Source: Geopsychrobacteraceae bacterium (GTDB lineage: Bacteria > Desulfobacterota > Desulfuromonadia > Desulfuromonadales > Geopsychrobacteraceae). Taken from it: DNA of 64,000 nt. The DNA is taken from positions 4,384,001 to 4,448,000 of the forward strand of contig OY759353.1 of assembly GCA_963662315.1 (NCBI GenBank), read 5' to 3'. The position numbers are program-made. How positions within the stretch are numbered: the first letter of the stretch is position 1; the number at the start of each line of letters is the position of its first letter. Positions 27,001 to 48,000 of the stretch are shown here, one piece after another.

Positions 27001-30000
27001 TCTTGAATTGCAATCCTTGAAATTCAGCAATTCTCAGAATTGCCTCCTTAAGGCTTTCCTGTTTGTTTTTACGCTGGATTCCCTGTATGGCTATTTGAGC
27101 TGCCTCGAAAGCATGCAACGCGCCAAAGCCGGGCTCTGTCTTATATAGCTCAAGAAATCTATGCCTAAAAGCCAGGTAGGCCGGATTAGAACTTGTGCGG
27201 TTAAAAATTTGCTGAATAATTACTCCTTCGACCGCTTTTCCACCAAGATCGATCAGCTGTTCAGTTGCTGCCCAGTCGGCCATTGCCAAGGGGACCTCCC
27301 AACTACTTTTGCGAACTTGCTGGCTGATCATGGCTGCATCTACAGAGTTGGTGACTATAATCAGAACATCAATTTGATGACTGCGCATCTGTTCGACAAG
27401 GGGGAGGAGTTTGGTGTTGTCTTTAGATATAAAGGGCATATCGATTACCGATTGTCCTTTGTTTTCAAGGAAGGATTCCTTGAACGCCTCAACCCATGCT
27501 TGAGTGTAAGCGCTATTCCCAAGGTCGTAGATGACACCTGCACGCTTAAAAGATCTTTCCAGGCTGAGATAGCGCGCCATCATCGATGAGGAGGTGCTGG
27601 AAACGGTGCAAGTCCTGAAAAAATTATCGTCGATATCTTTAAGGAGCTGGGTTGAGGAGGTCGGGGAGATCATGAGGGTGTCTGATTGATTAACAAGTGG
27701 GAGTGTTGCCACCGACATACTACTGGTGGAATGTCCGATAATGACCGGAACCTTGCGCTCAAGAAGGGAGGCGACAGCGTTAATGGCTGCCTCGTGTTTT
27801 TGCTGGTCGTCGAGGGCAATGATTTCTATAGGATGACCATGAATTCCACCCTTGAGATTTTGTTGCTCGACGGCAATTTCAACCCCTCTGCGACAATCGA
27901 CGCCCAGATCGGCGTATTTGCCTGTAATCCCGGCGACAAAGCCAATCATTATCGGGGTTTTTGGACGCAGGAACCAATAGCCACCAAGCAGGATCAGAAT
28001 GATCAAGACAAGGATCGTGTAAAGCGCCGATTTGCGAAGCATGACCTTCCTCCTTACCTGGTTTCTGAAATTTTGCTATTTCTTAAGCATTTATGCTTAC
28101 AATTTATCAGAATGTTTAGAGGTGATAAATGAAAAAAGGTTTATGCCGGATATGTTCTGACATCGGATACTGCAGCGTCATCGGTGGTTGATCTACTGAA
28201 TATAGTTTTTCTGTGAAGAAGAAAATGTTATTGGTAGTAAAAAGTATCACATTGTGATTTGGGTTTTTTATTGCCCTGTTGTCTGCTGACGCGAGAAAGG
28301 GGAATCTGGGATGAATTTAAAACTGACACCAAAAGCGCACAAATTTATTACTGAAAATGGCAATAATGCAACCATCGGTCTGGCTAAGCAGGTCTGCTAC
28401 AGCTGAGGCGGCGCACAGTCGCGAGACATCCCATCGGTGCGATGGGGACAGCCAGATTCAACCGAACAGCAGGATTATGAGCCACGGGTCGTTGACGGAA
28501 CCACCGTCTATGTTCACAAGGCTATCAAAGGAATTGCCAATGCCCGCATTGACCTGGTCACTGGCGGCGTGGGGACCAAATTGATCTTTCTTGGTTTTTC
28601 CGGAACCAAATAATTAAAGGCACCGTCTTATATGTAGGGCGGTGCCTTTTTTTGTTGTTGATGTCTAGGCGGGGGGAGAGGGTATAGGAGACATATTTAT
28701 AGCTTTGGAGTGTCTAAAACACTGGTGGCGATTCAAATTGCACTTTTAGCGTGACCAGTCAAAACCACCGGGTCCCGACCGCGCAAGCCCTTTTTCCATA
28801 AGTCACGATTTTCAGTATAAAAAGCCCCTCCTTTGCTTTCAGAGAGGGGGGCTTTCCAATATGTCTTATGCTACTCTTTCTTAGATCATCTAGGGATATT
28901 TAATATGCTGAGCAGGCAAGAAGTTAATACACTGTCTGTCAGATCAAGTCTCGATTACTACATCTTACACCAACTGTCAGATCGAGTTTGAGTTACTTCA
29001 ATTTAAGCCCCACCATAGATCGGTATTAACGCTTTCGGTTTTTAGTCTGTCAAGTATCTATTTTTTCTATGCGCTGTAGCTTTATCATACATGTCGAAAT
29101 TATGGCAATCACTCAATTCGTTTTTGGATTGAGTGAATACATGGGTTCGGGAATATCGCCATGCCAGCGTCATCGATCTGGTGAGGAATTATCAGAGTGA
29201 TCTGGAAGGGTCGGATTTGAAATCCAAGAAAAAAGAGGGACGCAGGGCGCTCCTACAAAATACGCGCTTCTCAATGAACACAAAGAAACCTATTTAGAGG
29301 GGTCGCGTTTGAAACGTGGCCCCTCTTGAAGAATTACCTTGGATGCTTATGAAATGATATGAAATTTTAATCGAAAGTTAAAAATTCTTGACTGGTCATC
29401 AACGCCTTTTCCTCAGTGCCATGTGAAATCTTATCTGTTCCCAGAGTTGTTGGTCTTCCCCTTGAAGGTTACTGATGAGACCTCGGATAAAAGCGATAAT
29501 GAGGGATAAGAACCCGGCGACAAAAGTTGCAATGATGACCTGAAACGCCCGATTTGGTGCGCTCTTGAGATCGGGTGGTACTGCGTTGTCCAGAACCTGG
29601 ATGGTTGACATGTTTTTTGCTTCGCTGATCTTGGCAACTTCATATTGCTGAGTTAATAATTCATAAATAGCCTCTTGAATCTTCAAGTTGCGCAGTAAGC
29701 GTGCGTAGCTCAGACCCAACCTTGGGACTGCAGAAGTCGCCATGAAGATGTCTGGGATCTCCTTGCCTTCTGGGGAGCGTTCCATGCGGGCAATCTGTTC
29801 TTTGACCTGCGCGATTCCTTCACGCAAGGCTTTCACTTCGGGGTTCTTCTCGGTCTGTGAAGACAGAAGGACACCAAGTCTAACTTCCATACTGGCTAGG
29901 TCTCCTTTCAGGGCCGCAATGGCGGAGATGATAGCGCTGGCCTGATCCTCGATCCGGATGGCTTTATTCTGTTCCTGACAGGTTTTCAGGGCCTCTTCTG

Positions 30001-45000: not shown

Positions 45001-48000
45001 TCGATCATTTCATCCAAAGTAAAACCGATTCTGGGGCGAGTGACACGTGCTAGACGAATGCGCCCGGCCAGTTGGCCACATAATTGAAGATGGTCAGGTT
45101 TCAGTGCCATCCCTTCAAGAAAACGCACCCGATAAGTATTGTTGCGCAGAGGCTGAAACCTTTGCATCCCTTGAATCGGCTCAATTGTGATACCTTTAAC
45201 ATCACGACTGCCAAGAATGTAGATCCAGCGGATTGGAAGTGCCTGTGTAGCGCTTTCCCTCTCCACGGGCAAATTGTATTTCTGCAGATTGGGGCGGATA
45301 CGGCGTAACGCTTCGGTTTCGATGTCGAGCTTGTCAGCGACATCCTGCCACAGTTTGATGCGTGGAAAGCCGGGCAGAGCACAGCACTGAGAGTCTACCG
45401 GGATGACATCATCAGCCAGAACCTGATAACCACGCTGCATGAATCCAGCGGCCAGCGTCGATTTGCCCGCTCCAGAATGTCCGACACACACCATACACTG
45501 ATCGCCGATACGGATCGCGTTGCCATGCAAGACCAGGTGCCCGCGCTGAAACAAAAGAGCACCGAAGGCTGAACCCAATAGAAAAACGCGAACACTGTCT
45601 TCATCAATCTCAGGTTCGGGATCGATGACAATCTCTGTGCCGTTGGAAACAAGAAAACGGGCCACATGTGGCACCTGCAGCCACAGACTGGTCGGGCTGA
45701 CCCAGAGAAACGGGCCCAACTGTTCGCCGTTTTCAATTCCACCATCAGAGACCTTGCCCAGTTTAATGGTAATATCGGTCTCTGTTGTTGACGGGTTGAT
45801 CAGTGGAGTCAGTTCTGGCAAGGGCAGTTCGCTGGCTATTGTCAGACTGTATGCGCTATGAAAATTCATTGTATTTGCATGGGTTGTAATCAATTGAAAA
45901 CCTTGTGACTGAGGTTCTTTATGTTTATTTGACGTACTGGCTCAGAGCGCCACCTGATTTTGCGATGCACGGTGACAAGAAGCAACCAACGACAGTAAAG
46001 CAATTAAAACTGACGCCTCCGGTTACAGCAACTCGGCCGGTGACCACCCAGGCATGGGCTTTTAGCTCACTACTGTCAGGGTCTTTCATCAGGCCAAAGT
46101 AGAGAACATAAGGAATGTGATAAAGCCCCAGCAGTAAACGGGCGGCGACCGCCTGAGGAAAACAATTGGAGTCCCAGGGTGTATAGCGAGCTGTCAATGC
46201 GACCAGTCGCGCAATTTGCCGGGCACGTTGCTCTTCAGCGCTGTTTACCAGTGGCACAAAAGGAGCTATGCTTGTACTGACGCCCAACAATGGCGCAAGA
46301 CGTCGGAACGAAACGGTGAAAATTGCAGTCTTGGCAATTCCCAACAAAACCCAGGCGGGGAGGAACCAGAATTTTGTCCAGAGCGGCTTGCGCAAGAAAT
46401 TAATGGCTTTGCGCTTAAAGGTGCGGAGTGCTGACACAAATAACTACACTCCCTCTGGGCTGCTGACCAGATCGTGCGTTTCCAGTTCGTCAAGAAACCT
46501 TGCCATGTCAGTCTGGCAGGTTTGTTGATCGACATCAAACTCTGCGCAGATAGTTGAGACAATCGTCTCTAGGGTGACCGGGTTTTCCAGTAACTCCCAC
46601 ACCCGTGAACCGACACCGCTGATACCATAATACTCGCCGTTCTCAATGCTCATCATAACGGTGTCGCCATCCATATCGGCAGCCACAAGGTTGGAGCTGC
46701 GGAGGTAGTGTTTATCAGTGTTTGTTGTCATTACTTATCGTCTTTCATTGGCATGTATAGTATTTTGCGGGGATGCCCCCTGCGACCAGGATCGTTTTAT
46801 TCTACCGAAATATCTGCCTGATTGTCATCGGTAGAATAAAGGCAAACCTCAGAGGAATCAAATATTTTTCGGATGAAGATAAGGGCAATGATTGGGATTG
46901 GTATTGTTGAAGCCATAACGGAGAAACGCACTAGGCCGTTATAACTTAGCAATTATGACGTGCCAGCAGGTGACTCACTACTTCACGGACTGCTGTCGTC
47001 AAATGCCCTGTCAAAAGTCTGTTCCCCCTCATCTGAGGATATTTGATTGAGAGCTTTTGCTGTTGTTGGGCATGATATAATCTGACATTGCCTACTAGAT
47101 TAGATCTAGATTTTATGAATCCAGTACGGCGCACCTTTCTGGTGAGATTGCAGGGTAGGCTACCCCAAAAAGCACTTAGCAACTTATCTATTAAGAGTTT
47201 GATTTTATTATATCTGTTAGTCGGATTTGAGTTGAAGCGCTACTGATTACGGGATATTTAGTGCGTAAGGCGCAAGCTTTCAATTTTAAAGAGGTTTTTT
47301 TTCTGTTTTTGCATGAGTAATGCTGGTTCTGAAATTCTCTGAAAAGTTAATAAAAAAAGCACTTAACGAAAATCGCTAAGTGCTTGAATTTATGGAGCCG
47401 CTAATCCGATTTGAACGGACGACCTACTGATTACGAATCAGTTGATTTATGCTCTCTCCCAGTTTCACATTCCATCACATGTCTCTATCAATAACGCTTA
47501 AATGCTGACGTTGACAGCTTTTTTATCTTCATATATCATCAGTTGGTATTAGATATATTCACACGAAAAGCTGGGAGATGATTGGGAGAGCTTATGGCTG
47601 TGAAGTGGGAGAAAACAAGATCAACTGGCGTCCGGTGCTATAAGCATGATACGCGCAAGCATGGTGTGAAGTTTGATGTGTATTACGCTATCCGTTATCA
47701 AGTCGATGGTAAGACTAAGGAGGAGGGGCTGGGCTAGTGATGGGTGGTCTGAGTCCAAGGCCAGGGATACTAGGGCCGAGCTTGTTGCTAATAATAAAGC
47801 CGGAGAGGGGCCACGAACTTTGAAAGATAAGCGGCGGCAGCAGTCCTTGCTGTCTGACGCTGCGCCTACGTTTGAGAAGGTTGCTAAAGAGTTCCTGGCG
47901 GCGAAGGCGTCCGAACTGCGGACTAAGACGTTGGAGGAGTATGAGCGAGACTTGCCTCATTTGATGGACTGGGAACCCTCAAAGGGAACTGGTATTCTGA

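Follow-up and report, generated by a model that had tools for sequence, protein, structure and literature searches.

The closest described systems are the paeninodin-type lasso-peptide clusters, represented by paeninodin, ThcoK, SyanK and pseudomycoidin. In the part of PMC8498205 drawn on here, kinases of this type phosphorylate the C-terminal serine of linear precursors, and in pseudomycoidin a nucleotidyltransferase attaches a hexose to the phosphate of that serine. The combination of an HprK-like kinase with an NTP transferase is given as typical of 'paeninodin-like' clusters in a section of PMC13381572. Clusters of the type analyzed below have already been noted in papers, without an assigned role. 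No account of a sulfated lasso peptide turned up in our literature search, and a term search of the available text of a June 2026 review (PMC13352647) did not find sulfation, in keeping with the claim of novelty made in the genome-wide survey's note on this locus.

The window, by which we mean the whole 64,000-nucleotide stretch of DNA that was analyzed, contains a genuine lasso cluster, one that belongs to the kinase (paeninodin-like) type, as judged from its profile matches (Table 1). It has in common with the described clusters, as far as the partial accounts drawn on here describe them, a split B1/B2 pair, a cyclase, an HPr-kinase-like kinase, an NTP_transf_5 protein, an ABC exporter, and precursors whose leader carries the YxxPxL motif and whose last residue is serine. 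The characterized kinases are likened to K by description rather than by sequence. Unlike those clusters, this one pairs the kinase with a sulfotransferase, adds a PF14397 ATP-grasp protein and private CysD/CysNC, and has another gene order. Every assignment made in the survey's note for B1, B2, K, S, G, C, CysD/CysNC, the exporter and the nucleotidyltransferase was reproduced with Pfam and NCBIfam profiles, including the weak Hpr_kinase_C match of K. With a probability of roughly 55%, we favor the explanation that the island encodes a working-looking paeninodin-type pathway in which K phosphorylates and S sulfates the peptide tail, using the island's own PAPS, and in which G, N and D follow.

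Table 1. Features of the island; positions count from the first nucleotide of the window.
Feature	Positions	Strand	Evidence or remark
Inserted island, whole lasso cluster inside	28656..47392	.	Synteny breaks and right-hand repeat; ~18.7 kb
Wzz/KpsE-like membrane protein	29399..30670	-	Wzz and GNVR domains; BexC/CtrB/KpsE E 2.5e-16
N, NTP_transf_5 nucleotidyltransferase	30658..31899	-	PF14907 E 1.8e-40
D, ABC exporter	31900..33642	-	ABC_membrane and ABC_tran
CysD, island copy	33830..34747	+	NF009214 541 bits
CysN fused to CysC (CysNC)	34747..36645	+	NF004035 1023 bits; APS_kinase E 4.7e-70
UG4-class RT remnant, copy 1, C-terminal ~43% only	36702..37325	+	PADLOC RT_UG4 E 5.4e-41, profile positions 175-305 of 307
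Tandem-duplication unit 1	36772..38387	.	Unit length 1,616 bp
Precursor A1, 50 aa	37406..37558	-	ORF scan
C', dead copy of 3' part of cyclase gene	37816..38415	-	96% identical to 41275-41751, ~189 nt missing
Tandem-duplication unit 2	38387-39334 plus 40888-41751		blastn self-comparison
UG4-class RT remnant, copy 2, frame broken	38395..38926	+	Reads as two ORFs
Precursor A2, 48 aa	39007..39153	-	Leader YxxPxL, Thr near cut, Gly-Lys start, Glu at 8 or 9, C-terminal Ser
IS4-family insertion sequence, 1,557 bp	39331..40887	+	20-bp perfect inverted ends; IS4 confirmed at 39405-40874
C, lasso cyclase	41048..42736	-	Asn_synthase and NF033535 E 5e-54
G, ATP-grasp ligase (PF14397), N-terminal helical domain	42833..44101	-	ATPgrasp_ST E 2.5e-14
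S, PAPS-type sulfotransferase, 284 aa	44110..44964	-	ATG at 44964 (Pfam-scanned ORF 44110-44970); Sulfotransfer_1 E 8.7e-22
K, HPr-kinase-like serine kinase	44967..45893	-	Hpr_kinase_C E 5.1e-7, under Pfam's cut-off
B2, leader peptidase	45925..46437	-	NF033537 82.5 bits (cut-off 33)
B1, PqqD-like leader-binding protein (RRE)	46444..46731	-	PF05402 E 1.2e-18; NF033536 91 bits (cut-off 80)

Synteny comparisons indicate that the cluster is an acquired island, missing from the same site of a same-genus genome. Synteny ends at about 28655 against one genome of the genus (G154) and at 28609 against another (G155), and the right edge adjoins a 52-nt repeat (47393-47444). In G155 the flank runs almost directly into a tRNA-Thr, and thus the insertion site is empty there. 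S is present in 2 of the 233 Desulfuromonadales genomes, the same count as in the survey's note, and in none of the six other genomes of the genus.

The survey's note had raised the prospect of a dead, broken-up cluster, pointing to the IS4 element and a truncated second cyclase gene, both confirmed here, and to one reverse-transcriptase (RT) fragment. There are two such RT pieces (36780-37325, extended back to 36702 by tblastn with a full-length relative, and 38395-38926), which are 93-97% identical. By self-comparison, a single 1,616-bp tandem duplication accounts for both pieces as well as for the second precursor and the second piece of the cyclase gene. Its flanks are 91-96% identical between units, and the 205 nt bearing the precursor (37412-37616) give no blastn alignment between them. 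C', which spans only model positions 478-607 of 668, is on the same alignments a by-product of this event. The IS4 element is present once in this genome and at 98-100% identity in two genomes of the same genus. It created an 11-bp target duplication (39320-39330 and 40888-40898), and an uninterrupted copy of the site survives at 37722-37732.

Damage comes down to this duplication and one clean intergenic insertion, and the cluster is scarred, yet no working gene was found broken. Residues 8-560 of the 562 in C align with the cyclase of another lasso locus (L002) at 65% identity, and C has the full length of its subfamily. Alignments with the L002 counterparts cover 96-100% of K, S, G and C, and those with a Massilia lasso locus (L003), whose exporter is 53% identical to D, cover 94-99% of D and N. 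B2 keeps Cys92 and His128, two residues shared by all 32 of the aligned B2 proteins. The two precursor-like ORFs are present exactly as the survey's note had quoted them, and each follows a promoter-like site and a ribosome site: TTGATT-17-TATACT (37676-37648) with GAGGA for A1, and TTGATT-17-TATAAT (39274-39246) with AGAGGA for A2. Because of the full-length alignments, the retained Cys and His of B2, the intergenic position of IS4 and these upstream sites, the pathway apparently is intact. As a separate observation, bulky residues that could hold a threaded fold are scarce in the tail of A1, which counts against the explanation that we favor.

To judge from gene order and modeling, K and S behave as one two-enzyme module. 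The stop codon of K lies 2 nt ahead of the ATG of S. The position of the kinase gene upstream of the sulfotransferase gene, already seen by the survey, was recovered in 8 of 11 loci and then extended to 89 foreign S loci, of which 57 have K adjacent on the same strand and 2 have it fused to S (59/89 together), although these counts overstate independence because the loci share descent and cluster transfer. Fusions are known in both orders in other organisms; the S-K domain order occurs with kinase domains in 72 of 120 longer S homologues, one of them confirmed by hhalign (E 7.8e-60). No lasso-linked S was seen without K, except in L027, whose contig ends at S. Prediction of the K-S complex gave a score of 0.83, against 0.00 for the best control. 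This score is the model's confidence and no measurement; the same mark is met by 116 of 157 solved complexes and by 2 of 215 mismatched pairs (counts that apply only approximately to this case, since our own alignments were used for it). At least 97% of contacts agree between runs, partner pLDDT is at least 88, and the predicted interface takes in the P-loop of K (139-141) and segments 49-78 and 151-157 of S.

Both enzymes retain family-invariant residues. In K these are Walker A Gly143/Lys144 and Asp161, invariant in 44 homologues. S keeps His91, Arg117, Asp121 and Ser125, with Lys14 nearly invariant in the family, and with these PAPS-binding and catalytic residues it looks like an active enzyme. 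Among solved structures, its sequence is closest to Teg12, Teg14 and StaL (E 7e-24 to 1e-13), which are sulfotransferases of glycopeptide antibiotics, followed by cytosolic sulfotransferases. The alignment with the former three covers the N-terminal PAPS-loop block and the RNPxD block, and is confined to these two ends of the fold. Residues 49-78, which the complex model places against the kinase, fall outside the aligned blocks, and Teg12, Teg14 and StaL are not known to have a kinase partner.

Genome-wide profile searches indicate that the island carries the only complete means of making PAPS in this genome. A search with PF01583 returned the island CysNC at 238.7 bits, and its only other match was a remnant of 26 bits. 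The housekeeping locus holds a second CysD copy (80% identical) and an APS reductase, and the kinase domain of its CysN is truncated. Thus, the sole complete APS kinase and the sole Sulfotransfer_1 or Sulfotransfer_3 gene, S itself, of this 99.9%-complete genome both lie in the island, which is a stronger case for a dedicated supply than the survey's note had made. CysC or CysD/CysNC also accompany other S-type lasso loci (L003, L015, L017, L174 and L187), and in a related cluster of a same-genus genome (G158) remnants are left of S and CysNC alike.

The AlphaFold2 (AF2) model of G (pLDDT 93.4) matches the folds of RimK, PsnB and Ddl. Its C-terminal 250 residues share the ATP-grasp fold of RimK and the graspetide ligase PsnB (Foldseek probability 1.00, TM 0.30-0.47) at a sequence identity of only 11-14%, whereas the 175-residue helical N-terminal domain is peculiar to G. 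No sequence match was detectable in the PDB, and the family comprises just 84 clusters in a large protein collection. A lasso cyclase is present in 31 of 39 G loci. The occurrence of G goes together with that of a lysine in the core, at position 2 or 3, found in 19 of 20 loci with G versus 7 of 26 without it, and the Fisher test on this contrast overstates independence because these loci, too, are related by descent and transfer.

From these genes we infer the following chemical steps. The two precursor genes would yield peptides with a YxxPxL leader, bound by B1, and a 17-18-residue core ending in serine. By analogy with homologous kinases, K would phosphorylate the hydroxyl of this serine on the still linear precursor. 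S, seated on K, might then move sulfate onto the same C-terminal stretch from PAPS provided by the island's CysD/CysNC, in a host that otherwise would reduce APS directly, without a complete APS kinase. B2 would cut off the leader, C would close an 8- or 9-residue ring onto Glu8/9, and G might join a carboxyl group to the conserved lysine beside the core N-terminus. As in pseudomycoidin, the phosphate may receive a sugar from N, and the product would be exported by D, perhaps with the Wzz-like protein.

It seems probable from gene content that K and S phosphorylate and sulfate the tail of lasso peptides. The sulfate could go to the hydroxyl of a Ser, Thr or Tyr close by, or else to the phosphoserine. 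Among 69 candidate cores from 43 kinase-sulfotransferase loci, 33 have no Tyr and 10 have no other Ser/Thr in the tail. Because neither is universal, a simple side-chain acceptor is not obvious, and the terminal serine would presumably go to the kinase. The candidates were picked partly for a C-terminal serine, so that this ending as a shared feature is circular. The sulfated-lasso reading of the survey's note hence stands as regards a real kinase-type cluster and an S with its key residues, but tyrosine is ruled out as a general target. With an apparently intact pathway, the K-S unit and the genome's only complete sulfate-donor supply in one island, the cluster is well suited to testing for a peptide modification that has yet to be described among lasso peptides.

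In favor of decay, IS4 and the duplication sit mid-cluster, together with a dead piece of the cyclase gene and two dead RT remnants. In addition, the related cluster of G158 is decaying, with no more than remnants left of S and CysNC, and thus function can be lost in this lineage. That the cluster here is likewise a relic, without a mature product, nevertheless appears unlikely: its enzyme and transport genes are neither truncated nor frame-shifted relative to homologues, S, K and G retain their invariant residues, and IS4 lies some 45 nt upstream of a retained promoter-like site. We consider it a little less likely still that S sulfates a sugar hung on the phosphoserine by N or another transferase, giving a phospho-glyco-sulfated tail. 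The presence of N, the hexose transfer by its relative as described in part of PMC8498205, the Pfam name of the G family ('sugar-transfer associated'), the coupling of N to a Wzz/KpsE-like gene, which overlaps its end by 13 nt, and the lack of a universal side-chain acceptor in the candidate cores all speak for such chemistry. However, of the 33 kinase-sulfotransferase loci that extend for at least 8 kb to each side, just 14 have N nearby, whereas K is beside or fused to S throughout, and the listed solved relatives of S include no chain named as a carbohydrate sulfotransferase.

A chance neighborhood, in which S, CysD/CysNC and the Wzz-like gene sulfate a polysaccharide or another non-peptide, strikes us as highly improbable. 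Wzz-like proteins are usually part of polysaccharide export, and 28 of the 89 S-family loci have neither kinase nor lasso genes, most of their copies being 40-45% identical and often arrayed in tandem. The S of the window, however, groups with kinase-linked copies (54-74% identity to L001-L006). Furthermore, S lies between K and G within one operon, it is elsewhere fused to a kinase and once to a lasso cyclase (P0206), and no glycosyltransferase was found among the island ORFs scanned. The Wzz-like gene itself is rare elsewhere (1 of 89 S loci and 2 of 39 G loci).

The RT remnants match the UG4 class of the UG/Abi reverse transcriptases. In the part of PMC9226505 drawn on here, this class has no known function and no defence enrichment, and lasso precursor genes are not brought up in connection with it. 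Profile matches indicate that UG4-class RTs recur beside such genes: a relative in lasso locus L030 matches the profile over its full length (E 5.1e-111), in contrast to the C-terminal ~43% that survives here.

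The gene set that the genome-wide survey's note had reported for this lasso cluster was confirmed by ORF listing and family scans, and its coordinates are collected in the table below. It matches that of kinase-type (paeninodin-type) lasso clusters as these are described in the accessible text of two papers (PMC8498205, PMC13381572). In the first operon, only 2 nt separate the stop codon of the HPr-kinase-like gene K from the ATG of the sulfotransferase gene S, with a GAAGGG box within the end of K, and 8 nt separate S from the ATP-grasp gene G. The Walker A motif of K and the Asp of its ADD motif are invariant in an alignment of homologues. 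Likewise, Cys92 and His128 of the peptidase B2 are invariant in 32 of 32 relatives, and no third (Asp) catalytic residue is conserved in this B2 subfamily. The cyclase C scores 184 bits for NF033535, which is below the curated cut-off of 525, and its length and alignment agree with those of cyclases from related lasso loci. Family scans found both the sulfate adenylyltransferase subunits and a complete APS kinase domain in CysD/CysNC. The Wzz/KpsE-like membrane protein, which has a 65% identical paralogue at C1:2566012-2567247, may be a periplasmic partner of the ABC exporter D. According to database records, cultured strains with sister clusters include Azonexus caeni, Shewanella fodinae, Massilia solisilvae, Azospirillum sp., Solimonas sp., and Celerinatantimonas yamalensis.

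Coordinates of the lasso cluster genes and associated features (window positions unless another locus is named)
Feature	Position	Strand and placement	Assignment
B1 (PqqD-like RRE)	46444-46731	minus, first operon	NF033536, 91 bits (cut-off 80)
B2 (peptidase)	45925-46437	minus, first operon	NF033537, above cut-off
K (HPr-kinase-like)	44967-45893	minus, first operon	Hpr_kinase_C, E 5.1e-7, under Pfam cut-off
S (sulfotransferase)	44110-44964, from its ATG	minus, first operon	PF00685, 78 bits (cut-off 22)
G	42833-44101	minus, first operon	ATP-grasp
C (cyclase)	41048-42736	minus, first operon	NF033535, E 5e-54
A2	39007-39153	minus, downstream of first operon	precursor gene
A1	37406-37558	minus, downstream of first operon	precursor gene
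CysD and CysN-CysC fusion	33830-36645	plus	NF009214, 541 bits; NF004035, 1023 bits; PF01583, 235-239 bits
D (ABC exporter), N (NTP_transf_5), Wzz/KpsE-like protein	33642 down to 29399	minus, second operon	family scans
Wzz/KpsE-like membrane protein	29399-30670	minus	overlaps N stop by 13 nt
Reverse-transcriptase (RT) remnants	36702-37325, 38395-38926		UG4 class
Housekeeping sulfate-assimilation operon	4487-9247 of L092, a locus of the same genome (G000:C1:166000-181000)		APS reductase, CysD, CysN with truncated APS-kinase-like tail, sulfite reductase

Both precursors end in Ser. In A1, Thr(-2) and Tyr(-1) are followed by GKFLYSTSEATPNIGPGS, which places Gly1 and Glu9 in the core. For A2, a cut after Thr-Ala gives the core SGKDFGPVETTSNLYGPS, with Thr at -2, Ser1, and Glu9, and the cut after Ser that was chosen earlier gives Thr at -3, Gly1, Lys2, and Glu8. 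Both rules have support from relatives. A Thr near the end of the leader and an Asp or Glu at core positions 7-9 are present in A1 and A2 and recur in related loci. A W/YxxPxL leader and a C-terminal Ser are common to the precursor candidates of kinase-sulfotransferase loci, although the shared Ser is circular because these ORFs were picked partly for it.

S belongs to a large, well-conserved family (more than 120 clusters at ≥64% identity). It keeps YPKSGNTW, His91, Arg117, and Ser125, which in this family correspond to the 5'-phosphosulfate loop, the catalytic His, and the Arg and Ser that bind the 3'-phosphate. Its nearest solved relatives in a PDB sequence search are Teg12, Teg14, and StaL. 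The pairing of kinase and sulfotransferase genes that the survey's note had described holds in a larger sample: among 89 foreign loci fetched through S, 57 have K immediately beside S and in the same orientation (52 of them in the order K then S), 2 have the two genes fused, 2 have K at another place in the locus, and 28 have no K. The K-less loci mostly carry S copies of 40-45% identity, often as tandem arrays without lasso genes. Furthermore, kinase domain tags in the order S-K occur in 72 of 120 longer S homologues, one of which was checked by profile comparison (E 7.8e-60). Of 33 loci with long flanks, just 14 contain the nucleotidyltransferase N, which argues that S depends on K and not on this sugar-adding enzyme. 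Fusions of S to an RRE, sought as direct proof of leader-dependent action, were absent from the 120 longer homologues. Among other close homologues of S, P0206 (897 aa, with 71% identity in its S part) is a fusion with a lasso cyclase, P0205 (504 aa, 76%) with a GNAT acetyltransferase, and P0291 with DUF6065.

Structure prediction points to physical association of the two enzymes. Three K-S runs scored 0.83, 0.83, and 0.85, compared with 0.00 for the best of three controls, with at least 97% contact agreement and partner pLDDT of at least 88. The mark for this score is reached by 116 of 157 solved complexes and by 2 of 215 mismatched pairs, counts that hold only roughly here because the input was self-made, matched 44-row alignments. 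The predicted interface comprises residues 59-76 and 103-108, the P-loop, and the region of the conserved Trp182, Arg200, and Arg255 of K, and residues 49-78 and 151-157 of S. The score is unlikely to be a product of the model's memory, since PDB sequence searches returned HPr kinases and sulfotransferases as separate entries only.

Tyrosine is ruled out as the general sulfate acceptor, since 33 of 69 candidate cores (from 43 kinase-sulfotransferase loci, the ORFs being picked as ending in Ser) lack it; in 10 of the 69, the tail contains no further Ser or Thr. Either S takes any hydroxyl near the C-terminus, or it acts on the product of K. Kinase homologues phosphorylate the C-terminal Ser on the linear precursor, according to the accessible text of one report (PMC8498205). 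It is perhaps reasonable to speculate that K and S form an obligate two-enzyme machine in which S would place sulfate onto a phosphoserine or polyphosphoserine made by K, yielding a C-terminal phosphosulfate anhydride cap. This proposal would account for the constant presence of K wherever a lasso cluster has S, for the existence of fusions in both orders, and for the lack of a conserved side-chain hydroxyl besides the terminal Ser. We know of no peptide with a phosphosulfate anhydride group, and we put the probability of the proposal at somewhat less than one in five (about 0.18).

The genome-wide survey's note had also proposed that the cluster has its own supply of PAPS, and this view is strengthened by a search of the whole genome. 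The housekeeping locus has a second CysD (80% identical) and CysN (60%), together with a thioredoxin-type APS reductase and a sulfite reductase. Its CysN is 570 aa long, and what is left of the kinase part scores 26 bits over positions 2-88 of 152. Going by the gene content of this operon, the host would have no need for PAPS. The sole complete APS kinase domain of the genome (238.7 bits) and its sole Sulfotransfer_1/Sulfotransfer_3 gene are both on the lasso island, 7.5 kb apart, where "sole" is based on a genome completeness of 99.9%. Elsewhere in the genus, only G155 has a complete APS kinase. In the same-genus genome G158, a related lasso locus (identity 74% for K and 70% for B1) retains only 54 residues of S and the last ~90 of CysNC; the two have decayed together. 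CysC or CysD/CysNC also lies beside five other S-type lasso loci (L003, L015, L017, L174, and L187). The unique island APS kinase, the joint decay in G158, and the neighbors at other loci are good evidence that the donor supply is part of the lasso pathway.

The ATP-grasp enzyme G comes from a small family of 84 clusters. Among 39 loci fetched through G, a cyclase is present in 31, B1 in 30, K in 29, and S in 24. In the confident model of G (pLDDT 93.4), a helical N-terminal domain precedes an ATP-grasp core of generic type; the best fold matches include RimK, PsnB, and Ddl (TM 0.30-0.47), and no solved structure matched by sequence. Cores beginning with x-Lys were found in 19 of 20 G-containing loci with a callable precursor, compared with 7 of 26 without G (Fisher 3e-6, a value that is overstated because the loci are related). 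The lysine is present in both A1 and A2. We infer that G couples a carboxyl group to this lysine. No such enzyme appeared among the listed matches, as far as their accessible text goes, in literature naming both a lasso peptide and an ATP-grasp enzyme.

Sulfotransferase genes in kinase-type lasso clusters were pointed out in 2014 and 2021 with their role unknown, according to the accessible text of those papers (PMC4289311, PMC8498205), and the role of the pair has been open in papers since 2014. A sulfated lasso peptide was not found in the accessible literature, including a June 2026 review (PMC13352647), although figures and supplements may say more. What is new here is the unique donor supply, the evidence for a K-S module, the link between the core Lys and ATP-grasp, and an explanation of the cluster's scars. 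The copy in the window is compact and lies in a complete genome, and because the single APS kinase and the single sulfotransferase are both on the island, it comes with a built-in genetic control. Testable expectations are that K and S co-purify, that K is required for sulfation, that island cysNC is required in the native host, and that a change of core Lys 2/3 abolishes the ATP-grasp step.

The cluster occupies an insertion. Same-genus synteny stops near 28655 and picks up again at a tRNA-Thr gene (56648-56723), and in G155 both flanks are almost contiguous. Part of the intervening DNA is a separate 9.25-kb integrative element (47393-56699) with an integrase at 47673-48773; at each end it has a 52-nt direct repeat (47393-47444 and 56648-56699), a perfect copy of tRNA-Thr 3' sequence. 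The lasso genes fill the remaining ~18.7 kb (28656-47392). S occurs in 2 of 233 genomes of the order, reproducing an earlier count, and is missing from all six of the genus's other genomes. Base composition does not clearly mark the island (0.45-0.54 versus a genome mean of 0.489), and no repeat was found at its left edge. At the right edge, 54 nt (47350-47403) are ~86% identical to part of a tRNA-Ala gene at C1:358165-358220 and may be a relic attachment site from a donor.

An IS4 element, an RT fragment, and a truncated second cyclase gene had raised the fear that the cluster is dead, which the present analysis does not bear out. The region from C to CysNC is not random debris; it holds two tandem copies of a 1,616-bp unit (36772-38387 versus 38387-39334 plus 40888-41751, 91-96% identity). 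The unit starts within an RT remnant, takes in a precursor gene together with the sequence upstream of it, and includes the last ~480 nt of the cyclase gene, hence the "second, truncated cyclase." The upstream copy carries the 1,557-bp IS4 element between the C stop and the promoter-like site of A2; the inverted ends of the element match perfectly over 20 bp, and 11 bp of target are duplicated on either side of it (39320-39330 and 40888-40898). A1 and A2 retain TTGATT-17-TATAAT/TATACT promoter-like hexamers and a ribosome-binding site. Alignments of K, S, G, and C with homologues from the lasso locus L002 span nearly their full length, as do those of D and N with homologues from L003. Because the IS4 element is intergenic, the promoter-like sites are kept, the enzyme genes are near full length, and B2 keeps its Cys and His, we read the cluster as scarred, not broken.

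The IS4 element is single-copy in its own genome and has 98-100% identical copies in two same-genus genomes; its jump probably came after the arrival of the island. No form without IS4 or without the duplication was seen when contigs of four sequencing runs were mapped on 28600-47600; runs X1 and X4 gave pieces identical to the window, and X5 and X7 only small or diverged pieces. A ~40-nt sequence follows each of the two cyclase copies (37781-37819 and 40948-40987) and recurs close to the island's left edge (28962-29001), at 92-93% identity.

The RT pieces match the UG4 class (E 5.4e-41), which led us to reject group II intron debris as their identity. An Rfam gathering search of 28000-50000 found nothing, hence no group II intron RNA beside them. 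Both pieces lack the full RT domain and are remnants, since the match is confined to positions 175-305 of the 307-position profile, its last 43%. In the distant lasso locus L030, a full-length UG4 RT of 356 aa (3578-4648) and the precursor gene are convergent. Along with L030, UG4-like sequence occurs in L016, L027 (whose contig ends at S), and L035, making 4 of the 89 loci fetched through S; L109 and L131 have it as well, and so do L185, L186, and L187 (7240-7389), which are 3 of the 39 loci fetched through G. Overall, at least 11 loci, spread over several phyla and including the window and the G158 locus (L093, 9194-13565), have UG4 RT genes or 5'-truncated remnants beside lasso genes. The RT is convergent with the precursor gene wherever the layout was checked (window, G158, L030, L016, and L187). 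Only 3 of 80 loci fetched through the RT hold two or more lasso genes, so these RTs are not a lasso-specific family, though the link is real. The recurrence may mean that the RTs insert preferentially at such sites or that they help to copy precursor cassettes. A search for DGR-type template and variable repeats around the full-length RTs of L030 and L109 gave short, chance-like repeats only. UG4 is described as being without known function in the accessible text of PMC9226505 and PMC2602772.

G158 carries six ~790-nt tandem units, each a precursor gene plus an antisense RT remnant (L093, G158:C1:3672000-3691000, positions 8871-13700). Identity among these cassettes is 0.33-0.55 in the core and 0.95-1.0 in the promoter and RT-remnant flanks. 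The window has the same hypervariable-cassette pattern: 205 nt comprising the precursor gene and its 5' leader (37412-37616 versus 39013-39214) cannot be aligned by blastn, and the flanks are 91-96% identical. The G158 cassette precursors all end in Ser, in a cluster whose S and CysNC are remnants.
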